Assembly (NCBI GenBank): GCA_004431415.1
Contig: QPMI01000276.1
Coordinates: 1-52,487 of the forward strand
Reading direction: 5' to 3'
Length of the DNA: 52,487 bases
From: Cyanophora paradoxa CCMP329
Taxonomy: Eukaryota; Plantae; Glaucophyta
Shown here: positions 11,801-52,487 of the stretch, piece by piece
Layout: the number at the start of each line of letters is the position of its first letter
Numbering within the stretch: position 1 is the stretch's first letter
The notes under the pieces: model-generated
What the model was told of the DNA's origin: nothing
The model's database searches: none
The model's input: only the letters and a program-made list of their open reading frames with translations
Translations under genes and position numbers: made by a program

Positions 11801-14630
11801 ATCTGCGGCCGCGGCGGACCGCGGTGCTGGCGGCTCTTGCGGGGGTCGAGCTGCGTGAAGAACTTGAAGAGGCGCCGCTGGTCCGCCTCCGAGATCCCCA
11901 GCCCGGCGTCTGCCGGGAAACCGCGTGAGGAGCGGCTGAGAGGCTTAACGGCCGCCTGCAAAGCGGGCGGGCCGGTGACGGTGACGCGGAAGAGGGTGCG
12001 GCCGTCTGCGTCGGGCGAGCCCTCCGCCTCCACCTGCGCCCCGCGGGGGGCCTCAGGCCCGGCCCGGCGCGAGCGGCGGGCGGGCCCGGCCCTTGTGAGG
12101 GCGCGCATGCACACCTCGAGGATGACGCGCCCCTCTTCGGAGAACTTCGTCCCGTCTGCGGCCCACTTTTGAGTGGCGATTCGAATTTCTGCGGAAATTC
12201 GGACACGGTTCGTGCGCGCGCGCACTGCCGACGAGGTTGATGGCCACCTGACCCGCCGAGGGCGTGATCATGAGCGGCCGCGAAAACCGCCTCGAAAGCT
12301 TAAGACGGGCAGGGTAGGGTGCTCGCGGCACCTGGCGGATGCGGCTCTTGTCGCTGACGATGAAGCGCGGCACACCAGCCTTCATCTGCGATGCGTCGCG
12401 GGCCGCGCTGCATCGAGCCCGAGAGCAAGACAAGCGCACGCGGAGTTGGAGGGCGAGGTTGCTCCGCGAGGCCACGGGCCACCTGCGCCCGCCCCCGAGC
12501 CCGTCAGAGGCGCGCACGCGCTGCGGGGCGGCCGGGGCTGCGGCTCGCATCATGTCCATGACCTCCTCGACCGCGGAGCGGAGGTCCATCGGGGCGACGG
12601 CGATGCGAAGCTGGTTCCCGCGCTCCACGGCGCTCGCGTCCAGCACCTCGCTCACCAGGTCCACCAGTCTGCCCCGAGCGACGTGAAAAGCAGAGGATGC
12701 GACGGGCTGGGCGGGGCGGACGCTTGGCCGCAGGAGCGGATGACGGAGAGGTACTCGCGCTGCTCGATGGCCGGCTTCATGTCCAGCAGCAGGTCAGTGA
12801 TCCCGATCACCGCCTGCATCGGCGTCCGCATCTCGTGCGTGATCACTGCCGCCGCAAGCGTCAGGGTGCAAATCAAAGGCGAGAGAAAACTGCAAGCGGG
12901 GTGCGAAACTCTGCAAGCGAGACGCGAAAATTGCAAGCGAGGCGCGAAAACTGCAAGCGAGGCGCGAAAATCATGCGGACCGGAGAGGAAGTCGGCCTTG
13001 GCGCGGGCGTCCTGCTGGGCCTGGAGACGAACGATGCGATTCAGCCCGCCGGGTTGCCGCGGTACAGCGTGCGGAAGCGTATCCGATCTAGCTATCGCCC
13101 ACCTGATGGGCGACGGAGGCGTGCGCCAGCGCGACCCCGACGACCTGCACATGTCCGGGATAAGGCGGGAGCACAGCTTCCGGCCGGCCCGGAGCTTTGA
13201 TTGCGCGTTTACGCACCTCGCAGACGTCCTGGAAGAGGGCGAGCTCGGCCGGCTTGAAGGTGCGCCCCGCCTCGTTCCACTTCACCTGCCGGCCGCCCTC
13301 GCTAAGGGCTCGAGGGCGACAGCACGCGCGGGAAGAGATTTGAAGGTGGAAGGGCAGGGGAGAGCGCTAGGCGTGCCCGCCGAGGCGGGCGGTGTCCCCT
13401 CTAGCGCGCTGCGCGCTCTCCGGGACGGCTAGAGGGGACACCGCCCGCCTCGGCGGGCACACCTAGCGCTCTCCCCTGCCCTTCCACCTTAAAATCTCGT
13501 ACAGCACGCGCCGGAAGCTGCAAATTAAGCTTCGCCGAGCTGCGCATGCTGCCCAATATCCAAACCGAGCGGGTGTGACGGCGGCGCACCGTGAAAATTC
13601 CGTTGATCTGCGCGAGGTGCCGTGCGTTACACATGGAGGGCGCGGCGCGAGCTGCAAGCGCGCAGTGCCGGACCTGGCCGCCGGCGACAGAGGTGCGGGC
13701 CAGCATGGATCGGACGCCCAGCTTCCGCATGGCGGCCACGGTGGCCTCGTCCGCCAGGCCCTCCGGCCCGTGCGGCTCCTCGCCCGCCCAGTCCTGCTCG
13801 CGTGCCGCGGGAGCCATGGTCAGCGGTACCGTCGATGTTGCAATTAATGCAAAACTGAATTTGAACTCGAAGAGGTTAATATCGATGTGCACTCGCCTGC
13901 GCCTTGAACAGGTCGGCGATCTGAACTGTCTCGTGCGGCCGCGATTTCGCCAGCGCCTGCGCGAAGTAAGACGCCGCGAAATAGAATTGGCTTCGAAATT
14001 CCTTTGCTTCGATCCCACTTTTGCGTGCGCATCGCGGCCCGCGCGCACCTCGAAGCGGCGGCTGAAGACGGGCCAGATGGAAGGGTCGGCCTCGTTCGGC
14101 CCGCCCTCGGGGCAGATGGCGACGTCCGCGACGCGGATCTCCCGCCCCTCATCCTGCAGCTGGTGCTCAAGGCACGCCCCGCTCGGCTGGGCGCTGACGG
14201 TCATGATCTCGACGACGTCGGCCCCGTACGCCTCCCGCAGCAGCTTTGCCGTCGTCTCGATCACCCTGCCGCAGGTTCGCACGCGCACGTTGGACCGAGG
14301 CCTTGGGCAACCCCAGGCGACGCACGCTTGTGCACGCACCTTTTACTTTCGAGCGTCGACCGGATGTCCTTCGTCATCGACCGCAGCAGCTCCGCACGCG
14401 AGAGCTGCGCCGAGCCTTCTCAAAACTTTTGACGCGGAATTCTCGAAGAAAGCGCACGCTTTACGTACCTCGCTCTGCAGAAGGTGGTTGCGCGACTGTA
14501 GCTTTCGAATCAAGCTGTCCTGCCCGATCTGCGGCAGCGGGCCAAGTTCGTTGTTCGATTTTCGGTGAGCGCACAGGTAGCTATAGATGTGCATATAGCC
14601 GAAGTGTCCTCACCACGTGGCCGATCTGAT
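8804..14630 (-). CDS. Hybrid sensor histidine kinase: GAF - HisKA - HATPase_c - receiver (multi-exon)
   Basis: H-box AKADFL..ITHEMRTPMQAVIGITDLL; N-box RIRQVAINLVG..TKFSEEG; G1/F/G2 DAGLGISEADQRRLFKFFTQ..GTGLGLFIS; receiver LRILFSED..FDLLLSDIMMPRMDGLE..YAIALS..AFLAKPV. GAF-like LGVRSML..GIFTVKWNEAGRTFKPAELALF precedes HisKA. Confidence 0.9.
12881..12970. repeat. Intronic minisatellite, ~20-22 bp unit x4
   Basis: Consensus ctgcaagcgaggcgcgaaaa, repeated inside the intron that splits the H-box region. Confidence 0.75.
13335..13498. repeat. Long inverted repeat (71-bp arms, 22-nt loop) in a histidine kinase intron; MITE-like or hairpin RNA
   Basis: 13335-13405 is the reverse complement of 13428-13498 with 2 mismatches. 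Confidence 0.9.
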
Positions 14631-35600: not shown

Positions 35601-37574
35601 GCGGGCAGCCTCAAGGTCGTCTCGTCGGGCGGCTGGACCGGGCCGCTGTCGATCCCGCTCCCGGCCCCTCCGACGACTCTGCCGTCCGCCGCGGACGCCA
35701 GCGCGCACGTCTCCGACCAAGTCTGGACGTACGACGTCGCGTCCGATAGCTGGACCAAGATGAACGTCACCCAGCCGTACAAGAGCATCGGGTCGGCCTG
35801 CGTCTGGGACGAATACCAGCAGATCTACTGCACAGGTGTGCATCCGCAGTCGATGTTTACACTCAACCCTAGATCCACATGCATATTGTAATTATATTAT
35901 TATTCTTCGCTTGGAAATCCGTATCGACGTCGACTCTACGGATACTTTGCGTTGGCGTCACCGGGGCACATGAATTCGTTCGTCTGATGTCCGCATAGGG
36001 GGATGGAGCAACGTTGGGGGAGAACGAGATGGTCTCTGGTCCTACGATGTATCATTTACAACGACCACTGTTTTGCCTAAGATGCCGAACGGATTTACAG
36101 GTGCTGAGTATTGCTATTTCGAATTCAGACGAACTCCACTCAATTTTCAAATATGCATGCAGGGCACGTAATGGCTTTTTATAATGGGCTCATTTACGTG
36201 CGCTTTCCCACACGCTATTCCTTCTGGGTGCACGAGCGCTCGGCTTGTGATCGAACACATCCAGGTCACTGGAGGGATGCACACCTCGGGCACTGGTGGC
36301 GCTCTGGTGAAGTGCGCATGCGCCTCCCTCACGCCTCGAGCTCGCCTGCAGCCGAGAAGCAGTTCTAACAGCTTCAAATTCTCGATGGCCGCCCAGGTAC
36401 GACCCCGCGTTCGGCTGGAGCAGGGACCTCTCGGGTCCCGTGACCCCCGGCGTGGTGCTCACGAACCACTACGCATACACCCGCGTCGGGTCGCGCCTCT
36501 TCGTCGCGTGGGGCGTCTACCACCGCAACGCCACCATCCACTCGCTGGATCTTGCTCTCCCCGCGCCCAAAACATGGAGGCAGGTCGCCAACTTCTACCC
36601 GTCAATACAAAAGGCGTACGGAGAATCGTACGGCGCCGCGCTCGGCACCTGCGGACAGTACCTCCTCGTCGCCGCTACGGGGCTGCGGCCGATGTTGCTG
36701 GATTCTCAAAGTGCGCTCTTTCGATTAGCCTCTTTGTTTCCCATATGGACCCACCTGGGCGAATTTTTAAAAATCGTCTAGCTGGAGCGATTGTTGCGGA
36801 CGGGGCAAGCGCAACCAATGACGGCGACCAACTCGATTACAAGGATGGTCCGCTCTCTTCTCGCTTTATTCACATACACGCGTTAAATGCCGAAACAAAA
36901 CGCTAATATACAGGGATTTACGGGACGGTGACGGACGGGTCTGCGTGTACATTGTGCGTCGCGGTTTTGAAATTCAAAGCTGCAATTGCAACTTCGCGCG
37001 CAAATTAAAATTGAATCCTTTAAATATAGACCGATGTGTCAGTAGCACGCTAAACGGTTCTTGTCGTTCCTGGCAGATTCGTAGGCCTTGGAACCGATCA
37101 AGCAAACTCCAGCATCAACTTGTCTATGTACAAGATCAACGGTCTGCCCAATCGTCATTGGTATCGCAAATGCATCGTTCAATCTCGTTCTCACGAATAC
37201 ACTGCTTGTTTGGATGATCAGGAACGTTTCCGGCGAGCGGGGCGCCCTCCGTGACGGAGATCCGCGTCGCGAATACGACGCAGTCTTCAACAACGCTGCT
37301 AGTCCGCTTCGGGTTTGCAGGCGACGCGGCCGTCACGGAGGCGGCGGCCTCCTGCGCCCTGTACAACGCCACCACCGGGTCCGGAGAGGTAGTCTGGACC
37401 GGGCGAATGGCGGTTCTCAGCGACCAGGGCTATGCGCGCTTCGAAGTGGCTGGTCTTGCCTCGGACAGCACCTACATGTGCAGGTGACGGGCACGCTGCG
37501 CGGGGCGGGTCAGCACACTCTCTAACGAGAGATCAGTGCAAATGCGACTAGCCCATTGGGAGATTCCGGCAATG
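32670..37574 (+). pseudogene. Secreted/surface kelch-repeat + fibronectin type III protein, interrupted by the viral insertion
   Basis: Signal-like AVLLTFQVLLLQLVAG; FN3 motifs VTGLTVNTTYTCTANATNSVG and VAGLASDSTYMCSANATSPLGDSGN; kelch motifs KLFYYGG, VWTYDVASDSWT, GHVMAFYNGLIYVTGG. The last FN3 exon runs straight into AT-rich viral DNA. Confidence 0.7.
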
Positions 37575-37862
37575 TCACACATAGTAAAATGCGGAGTTTT
37601 AACCCTCGGCTTAATCTTAATTGATTTTGTTGATATATATCGTATATTCTATTTCAATCAATCGATAATCTGTGTATATCTTATCGAATATTCATTTATT
37701 TCGATTATTTTGTATTCTTTTCGATATTTTATCGTAAATTTCTCTTATTTTCCGATTAGTCTTACTGAGTTAATCGATAATCTGTATATATTTCCGAATA
37801 ATATAACTGAATCTCAATTAGATCTTGCCTCTGGTTAAAACTCCGCATTTTACTATGTGTGA
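37575..37862. repeat. Perfect 30-bp inverted repeat at the element terminus
   Basis: tcacacatagtaaaatgcggagttttaacc (37575-37604) and ggttaaaactccgcattttactatgtgtga (37833-37862). Confidence 0.95.
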
Positions 37863-38113
37863 TTGGTCTTTTTGTTAATTGATTTAATCGATATTATATT
37901 CATGTACTTTCTCGATTAAATTTAATTAAATTTAATTCATTTAATCGGAAATATATCGCTTAACTCGATTAAGATCCATAAATGATTCATTTGTTTAATA
38001 AAACAAATAGATCTCTTATTGAATTCAATCGTAATTATACATGAAACTTATATGATTTTATCATTGTTTTATTGAGTCTAAGGGGGGACCCTTAGGATTT
38101 TTGAAATAATTGG

Positions 38114-38433
38114 GTGTCACAGGTGTCACAGGTCCATCCCAAACTTTTGAAAATTCATTCTTTATAGGAGAAACTTTGGGATAAACCTGTGACACCTGTG
38201 ACACATACCATATTTAGTAAGGATCTCTTTTATAATGAAAAACTCAGTAATAATCTTATCTATGTATTTCTAATTAAATGAATAAATGATTTAATCGAGT
38301 GTCACGGGTGTCACAGGTCCATCCCAAACTTTTGAAAATTCACTCTTTATAGGAGAAACTTTGGGATAAACCTGTGACACCTGTGACACATACCATATTC
38401 AGTAAGGACCTCTTATATTGTGAAAATCTCAGT
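38114..38433. repeat. Two ~135-bp direct repeats (period 185), each with a 91-bp TGTCACAGG iteron palindrome
   Basis: gtgtcacaggtgtcacaggtccatcccaaa...tttgggataaacctgtgacacctgtgacac at 38114-38204 and 38299-38389. Confidence 0.95.
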
Positions 38434-38823
38434 GTTAGTTGGTGTAGTTGATTCAAAAAATGCATTTTATACTCTGATTCATTGTTATTTCCTGTGAAAT
38501 TTGAGTCAACTCAACCCACTTAGTCAACCCTTGCATTGAATTCGTAACAAAATCCATATACTATTACTACTTTTACGATTAATATGAGTCAACCTTGAGT
38601 CCACTTTAATATAAATATTATATAATAGGGGAATCAAGGGGAGATGCTTATAAACATATGAATTATTGAGCCTATGATACTTACATCGTCAGGCAGGCCT
38701 CGTTAAGAGGATTCCGAATCTGTTTTTGGTTTTGTCACATGATGAGTTGGTGAAGAGATACATGCATTTTAGTGTTTTGTATGTGGTTTAATGATATGAT
38801 GTCATAATGCATGGGTTTTCGTC

Positions 38824-38922
38824 AACAGTTAAATGAACAGTTAAGTGGACACCGTTTCACGATAAACGAGTAGACACTGCCTACTCCCAACAGGTGTCCA
38901 CTTAACTGTTCACTTAATTGTT
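38824..38922. repeat. 30-bp inverted repeat built from AACAGTTAA units
   Basis: aacagttaaatgaacagttaagtggacacc / ggtgtccacttaactgttcacttaattgtt (2 mismatches); partial extra arm at ~39011-39034. Confidence 0.85.
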
Positions 38923-39401
38923 CGCAATTTGCTTCATTGTCTTTCAATAGCTTTCCCGCATATCTTGTTTTCAATTGTTGTTGCAGTACACTATTACAAT
39001 AGTTGTCTCGTTAACTGTTCACTTATCTGTTCGCTGCGGAAAAAAGACGATGACGGACGTGTTATGTTACGAAATGATGTCATAATGACGATGCATATGT
39101 ATATGATATATATGACACACCATCGAACTCGGGAGATCATGACGATCACGGCGATATATATATGTTATGTGTTTATGATACATCATTATTACATCATTAT
39201 GATGCATCATTCCGAAATCTCGAAAAATCGATAATCGGCATCTTCAAACGCTTGTATCTCATCACCAGATTATCAAATCGCAACGTTCTGCATATCGCTG
39301 TGAAGCGCTTGAAAAGATCTACAAGACAATGTGTATATCATATGCATATATGTATATCAGTCATACATATATTTGGAAAAAACGAGTTTTCGGCTAGCAA
39401 A

Positions 39402-40785
39402 CTAGCTAGTTTTGGTCCTCTCTCTTAGTGTTCTTTGAGGTTTAGGGGCTGTATATGACTCCTTAGTAGTCTGAAAGTCACTATACCATCTCTGGCTATT
39501 CACTTCTGAAAGTTTCTGTGTGCCTGCTATGGTGAGCTTTTTGAGTTCCCTATTAACTTTCCCAGCCTTCTCCTTCCTAGCCTCTATCAAAGGCTTATCT
39601 GGGACTTCATTAGCAGCTTCTATGCCTTCTCTCCTTATAGCAGCATCAACCCTAGCTTCCTCTTTAGCTTGCTCTAAGGCATCTACTGTAGGGTTTCCAG
39701 ATACTCAACTGCATTCACAGGCAACAGCTCATGGAAAGCAAACCTGTTATCTATGATCTCTCCAGTGGGACTCTTTAGCTTAAACTTAAAGCCTTCCCTA
39801 CTATCAACAGTGTAAACCATCCTAGACCAATTGTTACCCTGTTTAGCAAAGGGTTCTTCTCTACTTTCACTCTAACAAACATGCCAGGCTGCATGGTATC
39901 AAGATAAGCTATTGATTTCTTGAATCTTTCATCTTCTAATCCTACTATATACCTATAATGCTCCTCTGTAGTTTCACCTGGCTTCATCTTAGTAGCTGAG
40001 TGAACTGTATTATTGTAATTAAACTCAATATCACCCAACACATCAAAGAATCTAGCTGTGTTATTAGCTATGCAGTAGTTTGTGATCAATCTCTTAATCT
40101 GCTTGTTAAAGGCTTCAATTCGACCTTGGCTCCTATGGTCTGCAGTTCCACTCACTTGGTGTTCTATGTATTTACTAGATAAATACTCCTGGAATATTCG
40201 ATTTTGGAATTCACTCCCAGCATCTGATTGAACCTTTACTATGGGTCTTGCTACTCTCATCTCAAGCTGTTTAAATGCAGCTAATGTAGTGAGAGCTGAT
40301 TTATCCCTTATAGGTATGATATATCCAGTTCTCAGTGTTGATTCCATTGCAGTCATAAATGTATCATAGCCATTGTTTTGTTTCTTATAAGCTGGGAAAA
40401 AGAGCAAATCAATCACATAGGTATCAAGGGGTTGCCTTATTGGAACCATGGGATCTCTCTTTCTAGATATAGCAGGTGCATTGATCTGAACTACCTCTTG
40501 CTTTTTATAGAACTCTTGCAACTGCTTGTAGGATTCATCTGGTAACTCAGCCCTCATAGCTTGAAGCCCTTTGTAACCAGTTCTCACATCATAGAATCTC
40601 TTGGCAATCTTGCTAGTTTCTTTCACTGCAATAGCAACTGGGATCTCTACTGGGACAAGCTCTTTCATTTCAGACTTTTTAACAATTCGAGATTCCCCTT
40701 TTTCCTCCTTTGGAACTGTGATAGGCAGTAGGTTACCTTGCAGTTGCTCAGTGGTTCTCCTAACTATTCTTCCAGTTGCTGGCAT
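39402..40785 (-). CDS. Retroviral-like (rve, DDE) c-integrase of Polinton type; two homopolymer frameshifts in the C-terminal part
   Basis: YVIDL (D), VQSDAGSEF (D), RIEAFNKQIK (E), YNNTVHSATKMKP; after the frameshift NPFAKQGNNWSRMVYTV. Confidence 0.93.
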
Positions 40786-40788
40786 CTC

Positions 40789-43700
40789 TTAATTAAAAGG
40801 AACAGAATTAATACCATCTGGTAAGATGTATCTCTTTGCATCAAAGCAGTTTAGGGCAACCCTTCTACTCACGGTATCTATTATTGTGTGATCTGCCCTT
40901 CTCTTCTGCTTTGCAGTCACAGTCTTGCTGATACCTGCAAATAAACACTGCTTAAAATCATTAAATTGGAGTTCCTCAGTGGAAGTCCCAGAGAGCTTAC
41001 TCCTCTCAATCTCAGCAGTTCTGAAACTGTAAACTTTTGCTCTCAGACCTACATACTCCAATATTGCAGAGCCAGGCATTTCATTTTTGTATTTACCTGG
41101 GGTCATTCTGTTAGATCCCCTAGGTCCAAGGCATAAGATATATTCTCTATATCTTTTTGTAAGGTCTTAGATTCAATATATAGACAGAAGGAGTCAGTAT
41201 CATGGAATAGTAACTTTGCTTTTGTCCATTGGGACCTTACAGTATCATAGAAGAACTGGTAATTATGCAGTTTGGCTGCATCCAAAACATAAGCCCCAAT
41301 TGCAACAGGCTTATCTAGTTTCACATGCTTTGTGTAAAACTCAAAGGCAACTGCTTTTTCGTTTATGGGACTTGTTGATTTCACCAATGGGAAGCTGCAT
41401 ATTTCATAAACAGTTTCTCACTGTTTGCAATCTTAACCACAGATCTACCTCTGCAAGATTCAATGCATTTCCCATAGATTGAGTTATTCATGAGTTTATA
41501 GAAATCAGCCTCGAATTTATTCACTGCTTTCCTTCTCATCTCAGTATTCAGCTCAATGTAGGGTTTCATTACAGGAGCCACAGTAAATGAGAGGACCCTG
41601 TGAATTTTCTTTAATTTCACACCTTTGTCCAACAGATATTGCAGAAGAGGCTCAGAAATCACATAGTTTGCCACAGAACCAAAGGTTGCAGTTAGCTTAG
41701 GGGTCTTATCAAGCTCTTCTCCTGAAAGATCCAACAGGCTCTTTTGATATTGTGATAATTCCGCATATTCTACTATTTTCTTGTTAATAATTAGGGGAAA
41801 TCACTGTGGTCTAGATATAGCCTTATTGGGTATTCCAGATCAACTTCCAGGAAACTGGATCTGTTATCTTGTGGGTTGAATTCGGTCTCCCATCTAAAAT
41901 CACCAACTGGAATTGGCTGACTCAAACAGTAGCCATACAAGTTGTTAGCATCAAACAGCATAATGTGGGAGTTCTCACCATCAGCCTCAGCATACCTACA
42001 AGGCATTGTTGCAAAGCCACCCCTGATTCCCCTCTCAACAAATTCGTATTGCTCTACATCACTTATAAGCTCTATTTTTGCCTCGGTGGTCCTAAGCATA
42101 GCATCCCAAGATAACCCAGGTGCAGATACATAATGAACTGGGTCAAGTCCATATACTGAGTGTGAAAGCCTTCTGAAGGCTTGGAATTTGTTCATTAACT
42201 CATCTACATCAGCAGCTCCAAAATCCATGAAATTGCTTGCATCAATGAACTTGTAAAGACCCCATTGCAATGAAAGGTATTGATCAAAGTTTTTCGAAAG
42301 GATTTCGATTCGCTTTTTATCACCCATGCCTGCTATTTTTCTGAAAATGAATGTCCCACAGTCATCCATTTGGTCAACAACTACTGCAACTTTGGTTTGC
42401 TTTGAGATTCTCCTATGGAGATTGCAGTTTCTGCATGCAGGAGCAATATAATGACCTGTGTGGTGATCATGATCCCTGCATTTGAAGTTCTCCTTAGTGA
42501 ACCTCTCACTGCAAAGGTAACAGTGTTTGGTAGCTCTGTAAATTGCTTTCTGCTCATCTGTGAGTTCATTCATAGGAATGTTGGTAAACAGGAAATCGAT
42601 TAGTTCTCTTGCTTTGGACTCCAAGCATTCAAAGAGACCTCCCATTGGATCCTGACCCTCAAATCGAAACTCCTGAACATCTGCCCCAGTGACTACTCTC
42701 AGGTTGACTGCTGAGACTTCTCTCTTGGATTTTGATGCATCAATGGGGATGCTTCTATGTTCAATCTTGCAGTATACCACAACAGGAAGCCACACAGTTT
42801 TCCTGAGGTTTTTCAGTCCAAACTCTATGGTGGTCTCAGGCTTAGGAGTGATTCCCTTTGAGAGTCTCCAATCAATGCATCTGTTTGAGTCCACATGAGC
42901 AGTGAGTTTAGCCTCAGACCTGAATCGAGATAAGCATGTGTCACAGTAGTGTAACTTTTGATCCTTGGTTTTATCAAGGGCAACTCTGAGAAGTCTTGAA
43001 AGGGACATGATTGTAATATAGTGACCATTCCCTTCATCATCATGAATGAGCATCAGATTAATCTTTTGCTTTCTGCCTGGGTTGCTGGATTGATGTAGGG
43101 GATATATAACATCTCGATCCATTCCAAATATGTTTATGCTGATGCCTGCATTTTGAGATTCGAATTTATCAATGATTTCAGCATCACAGGGAACAGGGAA
43201 TGGGATGTTATCGAAATTGAGAGCCAGAGGATTGTATGTAGTTGGTGAGTATTTCCATTTGCGATATTGTGTTAGCTCACTTCTCTTGTGGGAATTCACA
43301 TCTTTCCTATGGATCCATGCCAAAACTGCATTTTCGAAGCAAGAATCATCAATATTTCGAATATTCACTGTGGCTCTCTTGGCTGCAATTGAATCAGGTG
43401 TTTTAACATAGCAACCACCAGTTGGGGCATAACTCATAATAGCAACTCTGAGCATTTCGATTCTCTCCAATCGATAGCTATCAACAACATTCATCTGCTC
43501 CTGACACATTTGGGCTGCTTTATTCAGCTCAGTTCGAATATTTCTCGATTTGGTTAATACAAAATAATCGCTGTAAATGTATTTCGATATCCAAACCTGT
43601 GGATTGCTGACTTTTACGAACTTGCAGATAAACGATAAGCGAACTTTGATTGCCCTGAATTGATCTAGACTGTCTCTTAAACGTTTTGGTAGAGAGGTTG

Positions 43701-44030
43701 CAATTCTATCTAAATATTCAATCACATCAACAACAACTTCCCTTCTGGCTCTGTAAGTGAGCCAGCGATATAATTCATTCATTGCTGTACCATCTTCTGC
43801 CTCTGGTTCTATTTGCCTCAGGCGATCGAGTTCATCAAGAGTTTCAACTTTATCATAGAGGTTATTGGCTTTTCTGGTTAATTTCGCTAAAGTGGGTCTG
43901 CCCCTTGAAATAAATCCGATTTCCGGTCATATTCAGCCTCTGTAATTTCATGGGCTGCATACAGTGTTCCCAGTAATCCCATGAGTTCCCATTTCTTCTC
44001 TCTAATGAGTCTGTTGCTAATTCGGGGCAT
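40789..44030 (-). CDS. Protein-primed family B DNA polymerase (pPolB) with C2H2 finger and EndoVII-like insert; split by four -1 frameshifts
   Basis: Motif A MLFDANNLYG, motif B YKLMNNSIYGK, motif C FHDTDS; also YGLDPVHYVSAPGLSWDAML, ERGIRGG, GKYKNE, EYVGLRAKVYS, DAKRYILPDGINSVPF. Joins ORFs 41791-43782, 41381-41734, 41103-41387 and 40789-41106; probable ATG at 44030. Confidence 0.93.
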
Positions 44031-44087
44031 AGTTCCTAACTTGTTCCTACTAAAAGGGGAGGTTTTAAATGGGGATATTCCGAACGC

Positions 44088-44138
44088 AAAAATTTGATGA
44101 AAACTACTTAAAGAAATATCTTCTATATATATAAAAGG
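44088..44138 (+). promoter_or_regulatory. Putative early promoter box
   Basis: AAAAATTTGA followed by aaaactacttaaagaaatatcttctatatatataaaagg just before ATG 44142; near-identical copy at 45427-45465. Confidence 0.65.
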
Positions 44139-44141
44139 ACA

Positions 44142-44960
44142 ATGGCAGAGAACAAAGCAACATCTTCTCTGGAACGCTTGAAGGCTACATTAATGTTTCT
44201 TTGTGGATCTAATAACTTTAAAGACTTTGTCGCTTTGGGGAGAAGCAAATATATGAACTCTTTGTATTTGAAACTTGCAAAGTATGATTTGACTCACGAA
44301 AGCCTTCCTCCACACTCAAACAGCTGTGCTTGCAAGCATCATATTGAAGAACAATGCTACATCTTGCATGTGGATAAAAAGATTGTGGTTCTTGTTGGCA
44401 ACTGCTGCATTAAACGATTTATGCCAAATGGTGCAAGGAGGGAAGATATATGCAAGAAATGCGGAGATCGACATAAAAACCGTAAGGATAATTTCTGCAA
44501 TAAGTGCAGGATTATCATAAAGGAGGAGGAATTGGAAAGAAAAAAGCAAATCCAGAAAGAAGCAGAGGAGCGAAAGAAACAACTTGAATTAGAAGAAAGA
44601 GAGCGAAGGCAGAGAGAATTAGAACAAGAAAGAGCAAGGAATAGACATGCAGTTAATCTTTTCCTGATTTGGTGCAACCAGTTCATTCCAAAAATGGATA
44701 ATCTTCGCAGAGATGATATAGAGAGGTTCAGAGAGGGTAGATCTGCATTGATTGAAATGTATGCAGAACTCAGTACAACAAACACATTGGTTGCTGGGTT
44801 TCAGGTGCCTTTTCTTAAAAAAGATATCGCAAAAGGATTAGATTGCAGATGGAATAAGGACAAGAAAACATGGGAGACCTTGGAAATCGAACCATTTGTA
44901 GCATTGCTAGGTAAGCATTTCAAACTTATGTATATTGAGAGATTTGGACAGAGAGGTTAA
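44142..44960 (+). CDS. Cys/His-rich Zn-binding protein with coiled coil and C-terminal DUF5710-like domain
   Basis: CACKHHIEEQCYI..VGNCCIKRF, CKKC..CNKC, E/K/R coiled coil, FQVPFLKKDIAKGLDCRWNKDKKTW. Confidence 0.75.
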   Translation: MAENKATSSLERLKATLMFLCGSNNFKDFVALGRSKYMNSLYLKLAKYDLTHESLPPHSNSCACKHHIEEQCYILHVDKKIVVLVGNCCIKRFMPNGARREDICKKCGDRHKNRKDNFCNKCRIIIKEEELERKKQIQKEAEERKKQLELEERERRQRELEQERARNRHAVNLFLIWCNQFIPKMDNLRRDDIERFREGRSALIEMYAELSTTNTLVAGFQVPFLKKDIAKGLDCRWNKDKKTWETLEIEPFVALLGKHFKLMYIERFGQRG

Positions 44961-45016
44961 AGAACAAAAAATGATTTAAAGAATTCTCTATATATATTAA
45001 GAGAGACAGAGGAAAA

Positions 45017-45271
45017 ATGCCACTCAGTGAAGCCCAGAAGAGAGCTATGAAGAGGTACCAGCAAACTGAAAAAGGTAAGGCTCAAATCAAAAAGTTTAAC
45101 GAAAAAATAGCCACACAGCTAAGAGATCTATATCAAACCGATGATACCTATAGAGCCATGAAAATAGCAAGTTCATGTCAGCGAAAGTATGCAGCCAATG
45201 CAGTCTGCTTTGTCAAATATTTGTATGATGTCCCTTACTCAAACAGAGGGAGAAAATCGAAACATGTCTAA
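45017..45271 (+). CDS. Small basic protein, possibly DNA-binding
   Basis: MPLSEAQKRAMKRYQQTEKGK...; has its own AAAAAATGATTTAAAG..TATATATA upstream box. Confidence 0.7.
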   Translation: MPLSEAQKRAMKRYQQTEKGKAQIKKFNEKIATQLRDLYQTDDTYRAMKIASSCQRKYAANAVCFVKYLYDVPYSNRGRKSKHV

Positions 45272-45406
45272 ATTATTTTCCCAGCATATTACTAGGCTGG
45301 GGATATGCTGTTTATTCGCTGAAATACCAATTCATCCTTTTTGTATCTGAACCACTCGATATATCATGTGGATAAATTTCGTAGGGATACTTTCTCGATT
45401 TCCAAC

Positions 45407-45476
45407 AAAAAATGATTGGGGGACCCAAAACTACTTAAAGAAAAATCTTCTATATATATAAAAGGGACCCCCAATC
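45407..45476 (+). promoter_or_regulatory. Putative early promoter of the primase-helicase
   Basis: AAAAAATGA plus the 39-bp box (45427-45465, 1 mismatch to 44100-44138), flanked by a 13-bp inverted repeat. Confidence 0.65.
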
Positions 45477-45483
45477 GCTGAAA

Positions 45484-47808
45484 ATGAACGCCAAACAGAC
45501 CAAGTTAATCAAATCGCTCGCTAACTGGCTTCGTTCTGATGAGGAACTCGCCAAAAACATGATTATCCCAGTGAAACCTGACAGCAAAGACCCAGTTTTC
45601 AAGCATAAGGGAGGTGCTTGGTCCTGGGAAAAGTATGAGGAAGCGCTGGCAACTAATCAGTATGTATCTTGGGGCATTCTGCTCTCAGACAACATGATGG
45701 TTATTGACTTTGATGATGAGGAGAACTTTGAGAAATTCCGGGATATGTTTCCTGATGACTTTGATGCCAATCAGCCCATGGCAAAAACTAAAAAAGGCTA
45801 TCATGTCTACTTTAAACGACCTGAGGAGTTCACTAAACTCAAAATCACCGATAAGGCTCCAGGCTTTAAAGGCTTTGAAAAGGTTGACCTGAAAACAATC
45901 ACTGGAACTGGAACTTCTGGATTAATTAATGTTTGTCCCAGTGTCAACAAGACCTGGGTAATTGCTCCATGGGATGATACCTGTGATTTCAATGAGCCTA
46001 CTGATGAGTTTAAAAAGTGGATTGCAGAGAACTATATCTATAAGAGTGAGTATACTGCTAATGCTACCTCACATGATGCATTGGAAAAGAGTATTCTTAA
46101 AGAGCTGGTGGATATGGGCTTTATGCATCCCAATATAATCTCTCAAACTGAACTGGGCTTTAACTTTGATGCTGCTAATAAGGGACTTAATTGCCCATGC
46201 TGCAATGGGTCCCATGAATCGAATAACTGGTATGTTATGACAGCCAAAGGAGAAGATAAAAAGTATATTGTGTCCAGCTACAGTGGCAATTGCAAAAAAC
46301 GATTTATCTTCATTGGAATGCAATCTGATATCTTCAATCTCATTGATAAGTCCGCTGGTTCTGGAGGCGCTCATTATGATGTCAGTCTTGTGTGCAAAGA
46401 GGTACTACAACATACTTGGAGATACTCCAAAAAGTCATGGTTCAAACTCAATACTGATACTGGGATTTGGGAGCATGATGACACAAACCAAAAGATTTAC
46501 CTAGACATAAGTTGCCTTGTTGTCCCTCAATACCTTGGCAGGGCTGTGCATTATAGCCAAAGAGCTTTGAAGGATGAAGAGAATAGAACAGCTTTCGAAG
46601 AGAAATCGAAAACATTAATTTCTATTGCCAAAAATCTTAAACAATCAGGATATCGCAAATCCCTTCTGACTGATCTGCTCCCTCTGCTGAATGATGATGA
46701 ATTCTATGAAAAGATTGATACAGTTCCATATGTAATTGGATTCGATAATGGTGTATTTGATCTGACAACTATGACTTTCAGAAAGGGGAAACTGGAAGAT
46801 ATGGTGAGCAAGAGTGTGGGTTATGATTATACTGAGAATGTAGACCCAAGAAAGTAGACCATCTCAATCAGATTTATAGAGAGATTGTAGATGATCCAGC
46901 AGAGCGAAACTACCTTCTGGCATCTATTGCAATTGCCCTCAGTGGATCAACAAAATCACAGAAGTTCTACATGTGGACTGGTGCTGGGGCAAATGGTAAA
47001 TCACTTGTTCAGGAATACTGCAAACAGATTTCAGGGCTTATTATAGCCCTCTCGAAATATCCTATTGGACCAAACCTAAAAGAACTCATCAGATGCTACT
47101 CCTGAACTTGCCAAACTCCTTGGAAAGCGACTTGTATTCAGTAATGAGGCTGAAGATGGTGATAAACTGCAGATCTCCAAAATTAAGGAGGTCACAGGTG
47201 GAAATGAAATGACTGTGAGAGCCTTGTTCAAAGACCCAGTAATCCTCACTCCAATGTTCCAGGTTTACATTACAACTAATGACAATTTGACTATAAATAA
47301 ACCAGACTTTGCAATTCAAAGAAGACTTTCATACCAGAGATTCAATAATATATTCAGAGAGAAGCCTGAAGCTGGTCAGAAGAAAGCTGACCCAACACTG
47401 TTCACACTTCTACACAATGATGATGAGTATAAGATGGCTCACATGAAGATATTACTGGATATGTGGAAGAACAAAGAGGTTGAAGAGATCTTAAGAAATC
47501 CCCCTCAATCGATTATTGAACAGGGAATAAACTTTATAGCTGAAAATGATAAGATTGGTGAATGGCTTAGGGATAATTTCGAAGTTACCCATAATGCAAA
47601 CGACTTTGTTTCGAGTGATATCATTTACAAATCATACAGAAGTGTCGATGATAAAGTTGAATGTGTTTCTGTGATGAAGAGAGTAAGGGAAATCTTCAAT
47701 GTGAAATCAGAGGTTAAACGAATTCAGGGAACCAGAGCAAGGGGCTACATTGGACTTCGAAAGATAACAAGGGTTCAAGAAGACAATGGAGAGGATGTTG
47801 AATATTAA
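45484..47808 (+). CDS. PrimPol (AEP) - Zn finger - D5-like SF3 helicase - C-terminal winged helix; three -1 frameshifts
   Basis: IIPVKPDSKDP, MVIDFD, TKKGYHVYF; CPCCNGSHESN; IGFDNGVFDL; Walker A GAGANGKS (46980-47003, outside the ORF track); TPELAKLLGKRLVFSNE, IKEVTGG.EMTVRALF, AIQRRL; wHTH-like DKIGEWL..IYKSY..RARGYIGL. Confidence 0.92.
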
Positions 47809-47868
47809 ACAAAACGATTTATGATTGAAATGTATATGTATTTTTTATAGCCTTACTGGAAATGGTGT

Positions 47869-47960
47869 TGTTCACAGGTGTCACAGGTCCATCCCATCTA
47901 GGGGGCTATAAAAAGAAAAATGACCAGGGGACGATAAAAACCTGTGAACACCTGTGACAC
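47869..47960. repeat. Third iteron palindrome, directly downstream of the helicase (candidate origin)
   Basis: tgttcacaggtgtcacaggtccatccca ... aaaacctgtgaacacctgtgacac; arms conserved, loop diverged. Confidence 0.85.
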
Positions 47961-48028
47961 CTATCGGAAAAGACCAAAATTTGACAAGAATACTTAAGGC
48001 TTACTTGATTGTGTATAGTGAAGACAAA

Positions 48029-48250
48029 ATGGCAAAGACTCTTGATGAGATGACCATGACTGAGTTAGATAAATGCATTAAGCATGGAGATATTGGAGCA
48101 TATATCGAAATGTCACAGAGATTGATAGGTTACAATATGTATGCAGCTAAACCAAAGAGAAATAGATCAGTTAACATTCACATTACTGTTTCAGTGTCTG
48201 AGAATGCAAACAAAAAACAACAAAAGCATATTTACAAAAGTTATCTGTGA
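48029..48250 (+). CDS. Small hypothetical viral protein
   Basis: MAKTLDEMTMTELDKCIKHG...; upstream AAAATTTGA..TACTTAAG motif. Confidence 0.6.
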   Translation: MAKTLDEMTMTELDKCIKHGDIGAYIEMSQRLIGYNMYAAKPKRNRSVNIHITVSVSENANKKQQKHIYKSYL

Positions 48251-48337
48251 CTTGATTGCAAGTATAAAGCCAATTCCTTTGTATATATTTTTATAGCTGC
48301 CTCAGTAGCATACTGAGACCGCTTTTTCTCGATTATC

Positions 48338-48838
48338 TTATAGACCTGGGGGTCCATTGCTACTATCAGTAGGCAAATAATATTTAATCGGTCTCCCTCT
48401 GGGTCTCTGCTCCTCTTTTTGGGCTTTTCTGCGATAATAGGATGCCAGGGCTTGCTGCTTTTTATACTCTCTATATTCTGGGTCCTCTCTATATCGTTTC
48501 TGCTTTGCTAGAATGTGTCTAATAGCACCCTCAGTTAAAGGCTCATCACTGGTAAACTCGATCAAACTAATTGTATCCTCCATTAATATTTGCTGAGAAA
48601 ACGTTTTCGCCTGGCAAAGAACTTCTCCTTGGATACTCCTGTTGCTCATATGTATACTCTGTGGGTCTGCTGGCATTGACTCCACAGAAACTGTTGATCT
48701 CCTTCTCTCTCTTGCTTCTGAGGCATTATCCTCATTATCTGACATCTCAAACTCCACTGTTGTCTCACAACATCCACTGTGGCAATTGCTCACCACATGC
48801 AGACTGAACATCTCGAAGAACTTTCGTATTATGTCCAT
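48338..48838 (-). CDS. Basic viral protein with AT-hook
   Basis: MDIIRKFF..SNCHSGCCE..KQKRYREDPEYREYKKQQALASYYRRK..RPRGRP. Confidence 0.65.
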   Translation of the reverse strand: MDIIRKFFEMFSLHVVSNCHSGCCETTVEFEMSDNEDNASEARERRRSTVSVESMPADPQSIHMSNRSIQGEVLCQAKTFSQQILMEDTISLIEFTSDEPLTEGAIRHILAKQKRYREDPEYREYKKQQALASYYRRKAQKEEQRPRGRPIKYYLPTDSSNGPPGL

Positions 48839-48860
48839 ATCTCTAATAAAACAGAGATAA

Positions 48861-49595
48861 TTAAAGCCAAACTCGTCTTTTATATACTGTTGGGGCAACT
48901 CCCTTTTCTACTTCAGCTTTGGTGGCACCAGGTTCAATGGTTCCCTTTTGGGTCTTTGTTTTCATTTCATCTACTGCCTGCTCATCGATTTGGTTCTCTT
49001 TCTTAGCAATAAACTGTTTATCCGGGACACCAGTGATTCCCATTTTATAAACTTCCTTTCGAAGCATCTCCTTTAGCTTGGCTCTCTCTTTCTTCTCAGT
49101 AACATACTGCTCCAAGGCACTTGATTTGGCTTCCAGGTCTTTGAGTTTAGCAGTCATCTCATCCCATTGAGCCTTGGGAATTCGATGAATATTTTGAGTG
49201 GGAGCAGTCTTGTATGTGACTTCACCAGCCATAGACTGAATAACCTTGTCTGATTCTTTACTTAGACCTTCACCTTTGCGAGCCAGTGATAGATCTTGCA
49301 AGCCTAAACCTTTATCATCAGCAGCACCAATAATTCGCCTGGCTCCCTCAGCAACAGCCTTCATCTTTGAGGCTTCAGGTGAAATGTTGAGTTGGTCACT
49401 GGTTGAAGCCTGTGGGGCTTTGTCATCAAATGATTCCTCATAGGCAGCATTGAGGGGGTCTTCTTGTTGTTGAGAGGGCTTCACTTCATTCATACCATTG
49501 AATTTCAGTGGGTCTGTGTTAATGGATCCATTGTTTCCACCACCTGAATAGCCAACAGCCCCAGCAGGGATCCCTATTTTTCGTTTGGGAGGCAT
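48861..49595 (-). CDS. Hypothetical viral protein (candidate core/virion protein)
   Basis: Intact 244-aa charged ORF starting MPPKRK, immediately downstream of the ATPase in the structural cluster. Confidence 0.7.
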   Translation of the reverse strand: MPPKRKIGIPAGAVGYSGGGNNGSINTDPLKFNGMNEVKPSQQQEDPLNAAYEESFDDKAPQASTSDQLNISPEASKMKAVAEGARRIIGAADDKGLGLQDLSLARKGEGLSKESDKVIQSMAGEVTYKTAPTQNIHRIPKAQWDEMTAKLKDLEAKSSALEQYVTEKKERAKLKEMLRKEVYKMGITGVPDKQFIAKKENQIDEQAVDEMKTKTQKGTIEPGATKAEVEKGVAPTVYKRRVWL

Positions 49596-49623
49596 TGTAT
49601 CTTTATTAGAATGAGAGATAATT

Positions 49624-50406
49624 TTATAAACCGCGTTTATATCGCATCAATTTATTGCTATGGACTTGGCTTTTCACTTCTTTGGGGGCTTCCTCTTTTT
49701 CTGGTGGTTTCAGTTCATCCTCTTTCTTTTTTGGCTTCCTGTGGAAGCGAGGAAATGGGAAATCTTTCACAAGCTCAGCTTTATCTACATAGTATTTAAC
49801 TGAGTAGTTTGCAGAGGACCAAATGATATATTGATAGGAGTGAACATACTCTTCAAACATCTTGTAGAAATCCTCTTTATTTCGCATTATATTGTATTCT
49901 TCCTCTATGGCTTCAAGTTCTTTGCGATTAGCAGCACTGAGAAACATAGCATAGTCAGAATTAACTCGAATAGTCGACGAGACTTTCCTTAGCTTTTGTG
50001 TGATGCAGATAATGGATATTTTCGAATGGCGACCTCTGGAATACAGAGATCCGATTATTTTATCCCTTGTGAGATCGACTATCTCATTATCGATTAAATC
50101 ATCTAAAACTACACATAACTGGTTAACAGGCTCACCCTTTTCTATTTTCTCTTGCCTCTCATCTAGCAATTTAGCAATGTAAGGGGCATCCCATTTTCCC
50201 AGTTGCAGTGTTGCCACTTTATCCCAGAAATGATTGAAGCTGGTTCCACTCACAACTAAAACAACATCAATCTTTTTGGCATCATGTAACTGCTTTAACC
50301 AATACTTTACAGCTTCTGATTTACCAGTGGCTGATTTCCCGATTGCCAATACACGAAATGGTGGTTCTATCATTTCACCAGCATTAAATTCTTCCAGATC
50401 ATTCAT
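49624..50406 (-). CDS. A32-like (FtsK-HerA) DNA packaging ATPase
   Basis: PFRVLAIGKSATGKS (Walker A), CVVLDD (Walker B), SRGRHSKISIICITQ, IRVNSDY. Confidence 0.93.
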   Translation of the reverse strand: MNDLEEFNAGEMIEPPFRVLAIGKSATGKSEAVKYWLKQLHDAKKIDVVLVVSGTSFNHFWDKVATLQLGKWDAPYIAKLLDERQEKIEKGEPVNQLCVVLDDLIDNEIVDLTRDKIIGSLYSRGRHSKISIICITQKLRKVSSTIRVNSDYAMFLSAANRKELEAIEEEYNIMRNKEDFYKMFEEYVHSYQYIIWSSANYSVKYYVDKAELVKDFPFPRFHRKPKKKEDELKPPEKEEAPKEVKSQVHSNKLMRYKRGL

Positions 50407-50471
50407 TGTTGTATATCTTTCTACATAAAGACAGATAAAAATAATGCAGGGAGACTGAAAATCGTAACAAT

Positions 50472-51831
50472 CTACAAATTTATACGACGTAATCCATCTT
50501 TGTCTACAATTATGAACGAATGCATGAGAGCGCGAACATTAACATCGATTACCTTATCTGAAGGCATGTAGAGGGTGAGGAAGGAAGAAGAGGAATTTGT
50601 TAAATCAACATAACCAGACTGGGCAATATTTCGAATTGCCTTTTCTCCATCAAGGCAGAATGGGAGTCCTGAAAGGACATAGCGATCAGCAACCTTGTCC
50701 ATGTTAGAGCATTTGAAGGCATCAGCAATTAGCTCAGCACCTTTGAGTAGGGAAATTGGCTCAGTGGCAAAAAGTCGCTGTCCATTTATTTCAGTTGTGA
50801 ATGTTATGTCTTTGGAGTTGGCATAGGTCTTAAGAACACTGTGGGAGCCATTGGATTTATCAACAGTTGCATTATCACGAACTGAAACAAGCAGAGCATA
50901 TACAAGACCTGAGATTTGAGAGAGGTTAATTCGATTGGGTTGGGCATTGCCCTTGGCAGGGAAAGCACTAGCATCTACAAATCCAATGTCTAGAGCAGGA
51001 ATAGCCATGCCAGTAGTCTTTACTTTTTCAATTACAGTAGCGAAAAGCTCATCAGAAACATTAATAGCATGCATGTAAAGGCGAGGAGAAGTAATAGAAA
51101 TGACAGGGTTGTTGCACCAAGACTGAAAGTTGTGATATTTTGACCAACATGGGCAAGGGTTCCATCTGTAAAGTTTCCAAGACCATCATCAGCAGTTGCA
51201 TCAACAGTTCCAACAGCAGTTGTGAGTTCACGACCACCATAGGAAGTTTCAACATAACCCTTATCAGCATCCTTAAACCAAACAGTAACAACCATTTCAC
51301 CAGATAAAGCACCAAGGGAAGATAGTGATTTAGCCAAGGCACAGGGATTTCAACGAAAAATGAGCCACCAAGTCGGTTGGTTCCATGAGCAGGATACCAT
51401 GAACCATGCCCATTGAGCGTTTCTTTTTAGCTAGTTGATCCTCCGAATAATAGACCAGGGGAAATGAGCAAGGAAATCAGAAGGAATGTGGTAGGTGTAA
51501 GATCCATAGTAATTTCAAGTCGCTGAACTAAAGCACCAACAGGGCGAGTGTATCCATTGCGAACAAGGTCCGTATCACCAGCAAAAGTGATGGCTGGAAG
51601 GTCGAAAGCAAGTTCGAGTTTTCCACAGAAATTGTAGCGAGGTAGCTTGAAGGAATGCGATTTCCTACATTATTCTCAAAAGTATTGCTGGGATTCACAA
51701 CAACTAGAACTGGCTTAGACTTGGATTCGAGACCAAGCATAAGGGAGTTATCCAAGAAAAAGGCTTTCGCCTCCTCTGGGGTTGTTAGGGCTTCTTTCAG
51801 CGAAAGTCTTGAGAGTGGAAGTGATATCCAT
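50472..51831 (-). CDS. Double jelly-roll major capsid protein (frameshifted, ~450 aa)
   Basis: Joined fragments are beta-rich: GALVQRLEI, FFVEIPVPWLNHYLPLGALSGEMVVTVWF, INLSQISGLVYALLVSVR, GYVDLTN. Size and position between penton and ATPase fit. Confidence 0.72.
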
Positions 51832-51871
51832 TATATTCTCTTTTATTATACTGCAACATAAAAATCTACCA

Positions 51872-52487
51872 ATGATCCTTAATTATGCGAAGCTTGTAAT
51901 AACTGGATAGAAGGGTGAAGCTGTGACATTCGCATCTTAAAGTATTCATAAACAGGGTCGCCTGCTGGCTCATCACCATAGCGAATTTCAAGGTCAGATG
52001 AACAGGTTGACCCTCAAATCAATTGGTTCATTAATAGCATTTACAATATCAACCGAGAAAGTGGATAATCCACCTTCTTATTATAGTATTTTAAAGTGGA
52101 TGAGCCTCTGTCGAATTGTAAACTACATGCTCACCATAATCTTTGTCAGGGACCACTATTTTATGGAAGTAACCAGTCAAAGACCATCCCACATTGCACC
52201 AGATCACCCAGCTCCTTTACTCTCACAAACAAAACACTATCTCTGGTCTTTCAGGCTCAAATGAAGATAGAATACCGTTCACTCGAGTCCAGTAAAATAC
52301 CATCAGTGAGAGCATCATAAACTTTGTGATTGGATTGAGGAATTGCCATATCTTCCAGGATCAAGACCAAGCAGTCTACCTGAACTCAATAGCTTTTGAA
52401 TTGTTTGCAGGTTGGATTTACAGCAAGTGAGAAGCCAGGTAAAACTTTTTTCGGAATGGAATACTATTCGTTTTCAGTGACTCATCC
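51872..52487 (-). CDS. Minor capsid (penton) protein, C-terminal part (frameshifted; start outside the window)
   Basis: SVLFVRVKELG..YFHKIVVPDKDYGEHVVY..LSTFSVDIVNAINEPIDLRGQPVHLTL resembles the Polinton/PLV penton C terminus. Confidence 0.68.

Follow-up and report, generated by a model that had tools for sequence, protein, structure and literature searches.

The locus analyzed here bears on how Polinton-like viruses (PLVs) and virophages that carry a primase-helicase start to replicate. It lies in contig QPMI01000276.1 of Cyanophora paradoxa CCMP329, whose full 52,487 nucleotides we call the window. GC-rich host DNA of eukaryotic style gives way at about 37573 to an AT-rich element that fills the window to its end, with the right end of the virus beyond it, and that, judged by its genes for a protein-primed DNA polymerase B (pPolB), an rve integrase, an ATPase and a capsid protein, is a Polinton-like virus. 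It bears three units built of 9-bp iterons, one of which follows the gene of a primase-helicase whose C-terminus is predicted to form a winged helix. We propose that these units are binding sites for that winged helix and serve as internal origins of the kind known from plasmid pRN1 and the Staphylococcus aureus pathogenicity islands (SaPIs), a reading that we consider probable from the sequence data. Because a second version of the virus alters the repeats and the wing of the helicase together, the units are probably helicase sites for starting viral DNA copying.

Two units lie near the left end of the element (unit 1, 38114..38204; unit 2, 38299..38389) and a third, internal unit (47869..47960) begins 60 bp 3' of the helicase stop codon (47808); none is assigned a strand. 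In each unit two 9-bp iterons face two inverted iterons across a spacer; the spacer is 53 nt long in all three units and the arms are ~19 nt. The positions are those of the original prediction, and the arrangement is far beyond chance: the exact 9-mer iteron occurs nine times in the element (from 37573 on), whereas 300 dinucleotide shuffles averaged 0.09 and never exceeded one. A motif-blind scan for a tandem repeat pair opposite an inverted pair returned the terminal units only, with no such layout in any of 100 shuffles. The terminal units sit in direct repeats (38102-38248 and 38287-38433) that measure 147 nt, rather than the ~135 bp estimated before, and are 92% identical and 185 nt apart; a joint from 38101 to 38292 in one contig of sequencing run X15 gives a variant that lacks one terminal unit. 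Both are inverted relative to the internal unit, and because they share its outer flank, arm and a CTATAAA spacer core when reversed and aligned to it, we regard them as inverted duplicates of the internal unit. The shared core also qualifies the earlier statement that the third copy keeps arms and spacing but not the loop: the spacing is kept, and so is this part of the loop.

Multiple copies, the terminal ones more perfectly symmetric than the internal one, could also be produced by a small foldback transposon (a miniature inverted-repeat transposable element) or by template switching, with no partner protein. Scatter of the units through host DNA, named beforehand as an observation that would speak for such a transposon, was not seen, as the 37.5-kb host part of the window has no exact 9-mer. 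The flanks are common to the copies in inverted orientation, whereas new insertion sites would differ, and the layout recurs beside unrelated primase-helicases. We consider this origin of the units very improbable.

The protein that would read the units is encoded at 45484..47808 (+). This primase-helicase, about 775 aa long and split into three frames in this copy, matches the Prim-Pol, D5_N and SF3 families (PF09250, PF08706 and PF19263). An intact 775-aa relative (P0003) spans all three frames, with 39% identity over the first and 38% over the last, and PHROG primases match the full C-terminal frame. Locus scans with the single protein gave no relatives, and word-based protein searches gave 0 and 2 matches. 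AlphaFold, supplied with 140 sequences, models the last frame as a helicase part plus a winged helix with a pLDDT of 93 (34 when folded without an alignment). Foldseek matches the model overall to C962R of African swine fever virus (ASFV), and its tail to RFX5 (8zjr_M, E = 2.6e-4) and RFX1 (1dp7, E = 6.4e-4), so that the winged-helix-like ending first noticed in the raw sequence is borne out by the model. This RFX-type winged helix (47551..47763, +; mean pLDDT 93) lies wholly within the single open frame 47080-47808, where its wing hairpin (47707-47751, +) occupies residues 210-224. The wing of RFX proteins reads bases in the major groove. Most of their DNA contacts are made by helix 3 and the wing (PMC2777425). 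What the winged-helix tail of D5-type helicases targets is described as unclear for ASFV C962R (PMC10516667).

Wing and iterons change together between two alleles of this region. Over 47500-48250, allele B differs from allele A, the version in the window, at 42-44 positions in 290-330 nt, and it accounts for 44-50% of the combined A and B contig depth in runs X1, X2 and X6. One contig (X1 record 3, X6 record 21) connects the winged helix with the left arm of the internal unit, where TGTGACAGG stands twice in place of TGTCACAGG, and a loose end in X2 and X6 holds a right arm with two inverted copies of the allele B iteron. Every visible iteron is altered at one and the same position, by a single base, as expected if a protein reads the site; a hairpin as such would not require this uniformity. 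The residue changes were read by hand from the 32 coding differences listed and a codon map, and on that basis R187K, V212R, I215V, Q216N, T218I, R219L and L226I fall within the winged helix and three further changes in the acidic tail. V212R, I215V, Q216N, T218I and R219L are in the wing and none is in helix 3, so that 5 of 15 wing codons are changed vs 2 of 47 other codons (P = 0.007). The stretch from wing to iterons differs less (7 of the differences listed, over 120 nt) and so forms a more conserved block between the two changed patches. A changed wing accompanied by a changed iteron is the pattern predicted for a matched protein and site, seen here in a single allele pair, and the two alleles make a natural two-by-two test pair with wings five residues apart and iterons one base apart.

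The iterons also recur beside primase-helicases elsewhere. Among 67 IMG/VR loci with the 18-mer (30 of A type, 37 of B type), Pfam was run on nearby ORFs chosen by proximity (19 for A loci and 16 for B loci). A primase-helicase adjoins the 18-mer at 12 of the 30 A loci and 13 of the 37 B loci, in all cases but one at or in the 3' end of the gene. Clusters with the 18-mer in both orientations adjoin a primase-helicase far more often than other loci do (22/28 vs 3/39), and the primase-helicases concerned are those of phages. In a motif-blind test of eukaryotic-virus loci, the layout lay 3' of the stop codon in 11 of 80 D5-like genes vs 13 of 691 other genes, a background figure in which additional copies of these units may be counted. 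All 11 positives belong to the 25 virophage loci, and are freshwater IMG/VR virophages (L112-L116, L118, L157, L158, L171, L179 and L181) in which two iterons of 9-bp period face two inverted ones directly at the stop of the D5-like helicase, with extra copies elsewhere. They form two lineages, each with its own iteron and its own wing, and the iteron change is again matched in position. A metagenome scan with a 17-mer common to our three units gave 42 single matches, none of them related to the element.

Three further observations concern these collections. In the virophages L112, L113, L114, L118 and L157 a single kind of iteron palindrome is repeated at 2-5 dispersed sites, a candidate for a separate multi-origin or terminator system. 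Past the helicase stop of L110, L111, L119, L121 and L140 there are GC-rich short direct repeats only, with no inverted arm; these are possibly half-sites. One phage-like 80.7-kb IMG/VR contig (L001 and L018) has a TGTCACAGG unit of near-identical geometry 5' of a Prim-Pol/D5 gene, and another copy at a distance of about 36 kb.

A hairpin at the end of a gene may have another use. The units could be transcript-end hairpins that direct termination or polyadenylation, as in Mimiviridae, with the joint change of wing and iteron reflecting shared descent. This alternative draws its best support from the virophages, where each of the 17 copies inspected (six loci) is found 3' of a gene, a count that also weighs against origins, and where pairing is retained through mirror changes in the alignment at 6 of 26 pairs; the position of the internal unit past a stop codon fits it too. 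Folding strength speaks on both sides, in that the terminal units fold strongly (z about -9) and the poorest hairpin (z -2.7) is the copy behind the helicase. Here two iterons, the outer left and the inner right, are TGTTCAC variants, and because these are non-mirror positions the hairpin is weakened; because contigs of three runs agree on the variants, they are not assembly errors. They spoil the hairpin and preserve the iteron array, which we count in favor of a site bound by protein. The terminal units, moreover, are ~1 kb from the closest listed ORF of at least 100 aa, and three virophage copies behind minus-strand genes match, by eye, the genome orientation of the copy behind the plus-strand helicase. 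Mimivirus transcript-end signals vary in sequence (PMC4402537), whereas the units here have fixed iterons, period and spacing. Rfam gave no match across 37400-52487, and a scan for sigma-70 promoters and terminators stayed at chance level with a model ill-suited to this virus. We judge a role confined to transcript ends quite unlikely.

Several other results weigh against origins read by the winged helix. Only two alleles are compared, and linkage over ~120 bp could reflect shared descent. Nucleotide differences as such concentrate at the wing (a single 60-nt bin has 20 of 34), residue changes are not in significant excess among differing codons (P = 0.36), and in the 140 homologues helix 3 varies as much as the wing; the codon counts for allele B, moreover, cover the 32 coding differences listed. 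The AT-rich loop of the original prediction holds for the terminal copies (spacers of 70% and 68% AT) but not for the internal one, whose spacer includes an A-tract and, at 58% AT overall, is not raised over the element (61%). Seven of the 13 B-motif neighbors are AAA_25 or NrS-1-type proteins rather than SF3 helicases, and the IMG/VR loci are partly redundant, with some near-duplicates, and related, so that P values overstate their independence. Co-occurrence of such palindromes with D5-type helicases is patchy: the strict layout is present in 11 of 25 virophage loci and missing from the other 14, and in a second, mostly giant-virus set it is missing from 75 of the 76 loci examined (of 78), the one positive being a contig already counted. 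For pRN1, sequence-specific binding by the winged helix could not be demonstrated (PMC2777425). The idea that the units are iteron sites for a winged helix gains independent support from the allele-linked change of wing and iteron, the phage neighbors and the virophage layout; against it stand most D5 relatives, which are without the strict layout.

If the units are origins, replication would most likely proceed as follows. The wing hairpin would read the iteron core; one helicase hexamer would load on each arm, the spacer would melt, and the helicase's own Prim-Pol domain would prime, by analogy with SaPI and pRN1 (PMC9371898, PMC4234260). The terminal units would supply extra loading sites near the end of the element, and gene and site would form a jointly evolving pair of matched specificity, present in only some members of a virus family that also encodes pPolB. 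A broader scheme is tentative, and we hold it to be rather doubtful: D5-bearing PLVs and virophages in general might replicate from internal origins whose iterons the helicase wing reads, in parallel to protein priming or replacing it. In the present family two origin specificities would then coexist in one host genome, much as plasmid incompatibility groups do, and the terminal pair and the gene-side site would both be needed. Against the need for both sites stand the contig that lacks one terminal unit and the scattered virophage copies (2-5), which fit several independent sites equally well.

The helicase might instead bind the units for the regulation or mobility of its own cassette (autoregulation, an enhancer-like effect or recombination boundaries), with replication left solely to terminal protein priming. 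The element does retain pPolB, contig depth is lower over the helicase module than over the core genes (a depth, not a copy number), and repeats around a second replicase have been interpreted as signs of mobility (10.64898/2026.10.13.758929). Among the joints listed (15 of 17), however, none deletes the whole module, and the geometry and position of the units agree with those of experimentally defined origins (PMC4234260, PMC9371898). We regard a purely regulatory or mobility role as unlikely, and use of the units in replication initiation as the better account.

Two kinds of repeat lie upstream of genes in the helicase module, whose upstream part has an ORF that weakly matches DUF5710 (44142..44960, +; E = 1.9e-4). 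A 39-nt repeat (97% identical) containing ACTACTTAAAG and TCTATATATAT stands directly upstream of the ORFs at 44142 and 45484 (44100-44138 and 45427-45465) and is likely a common promoter; a partial copy occurs at 44979-45000, ahead of 45017. A short pair, GGGGACCC and GGGACCCC (45416-45428 and 45463-45475), flanks this promoter-like repeat upstream of the helicase, and the similar GGGGGACCC is found at about 38082, directly ahead of terminal unit 1.

The left end of the integrated virus lies at 37573..37577 (no strand assigned), with an uncertainty of a few bases, where GC content falls from ~0.65 to ~0.39. In three runs a single-copy host contig stops at 37602, depth rises sharply past that point, and many variant contigs of greater depth match the element beside an identical host flank; because of these deeper variants next to an unchanged single flank we take the element to be a multicopy family. 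The stretch is present, whole or in part, in 20 of the 24 listed sequencing runs. On the minus strand lie the rve integrase (39775..40785; PF00665, E = 8.6e-5, under the curated cut-off), pPolB (40789..43782; PF03175, E = 9.1e-6, and PF02945; four frames in this copy), an A32-type packaging ATPase (49624..50406; PF04665, E = 3.2e-11) and the major capsid protein (50472..51700; several frames, 5' end approximate). The integrase and polymerase scores are just or well under the Pfam cut-offs. Pieces of the capsid are 63% and 69% identical to P0153, the sole capsid relative found is a Cyanophora paradoxa protein, and the capsid shows a feature-level likeness to Capsid_NCLDV clusters that is weak by the recognition score of the tool itself. 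Several frame breaks in polymerase and capsid are absent from the deep contigs (among the rows listed), which makes them errors or private to this copy.

The left part of the element contains other repeats. A second palindrome family (38817..39034, no strand assigned) has a 12-bp period and a TTAACTGTTCAC core, with TGTTCAC at the core of its 12-bp repeats, TGATGTCATAATG direct repeats on its flanks and a partial copy in addition. Some contigs omit this block (joints 38783 to 39070 and 38809 to 39096), and of the 32 matches to a scan for it none combines sites of the two orientations. At the extreme end of the element (37575-37862), 43-nt arms that are 86% complementary form a foldback around a 202-nt AT-rich spacer, which may relate to the terminal palindromes of virophages and PLVs (10.64898/2026.07.28.741278), and the TGTCACA iteron core is present also at 37573, on the host/element junction. 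An 84-nt inverted repeat in the host part (13322-13511) has 92% complementarity and a gap of 22 nt. The nearby host frame 12655-13281 (-) contains THEMRTPM, which we take to be a histidine-kinase-like motif.

The literature searched, which covered few subscription papers, yielded no account of an iteron origin in a Polinton, PLV or virophage, nor any characterization of the freshwater virophage layout; a search for virophage and iteron gave a single match, on Vibrio satellites (PMC7145576). The freshwater virophages themselves differ from our element in their iteron sequences and in having a Sputnik-type capsid. Where PLVs and virophages have a second replicase or terminal palindromes, the proposals concern terminal repeats or priming from hairpins, and the available parts of these accounts describe neither iterons past the helicase gene nor a pairing of wing and iteron (PMC11296320; 10.64898/2026.07.28.741278; 10.64898/2026.10.13.758929). 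The feature is real and probably a variant form of a known kind of origin, placed in a eukaryotic virus group for which the searched literature has no such description. If this reading is right, the origin logic of phage satellites would extend to eukaryotic viruses and offer a rule for locating virophage origins.

Phage P4, the parallel drawn in the original prediction, needs both of its distant sites for initiation. In the record that we compared (X51522), its crr, labeled "cis required region", consists of two 120-bp repeats 180 bp apart with iterons spaced by 9 bp. The shape of the comparison is fair: in both systems a pair of direct repeats ~180 bp apart each has two iterons 9 bp apart facing inverted ones, with a second site kilobases away, and the winged helix of P4 alpha has been compared to RFX (PMC2777425). 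The details differ. The crr pair directly follows alpha, whereas here a single unit follows the gene and 9.5 kb separate the pair from the end of the gene; P4 has a DnaG-type primase (PMC2777425), and here it is a Prim-Pol (PF09250); and P4 has GGTGAACA as its iteron where our element has TGTCACAGG or TGTGACAGG. The 7-nt core of the P4 iteron does occur at 2 of 12 iteron positions, as the TGTTCAC variants noticed from the start, but the match is probably incidental, since the left arm of allele B is without TGTTCAC.

Closer likenesses than that with P4 are found in pRN1 and SaPI. In pRN1 an essential stem-loop of ~100 bp lies 54 bp past ORF904 (PMC4234260), and both systems unite Prim-Pol, D5_N, SF3 and a winged helix in one protein (PMC4234260, PMC2777425). 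The inverted repeats past the stop codons are similar in distance (54 bp in pRN1 vs 60 bp here), stem (21 vs ~19 nt) and loop (58 vs 53 nt; PMC4234260). However, pRN1 is an archaeal Sulfolobus plasmid with no iteron array, whereas the present system has tandem 9-bp iterons in three copies and belongs to a eukaryotic virus with pPolB. In SaPIs the winged helix binds an origin directly past rep, in which an AT region has two or more opposed iterons to either side (PMC9371898). SaPI Rep and PriRep5 resemble our locus in the position of the origin next to the 3' end of the gene, in this number and opposition of the iterons and in a C-terminal winged helix as reader, predicted in our case. SaPI differs in its 6-12 iterons of 5-6 nt, a clearly AT-rich center, a single origin and demonstrated binding (PMC9371898).

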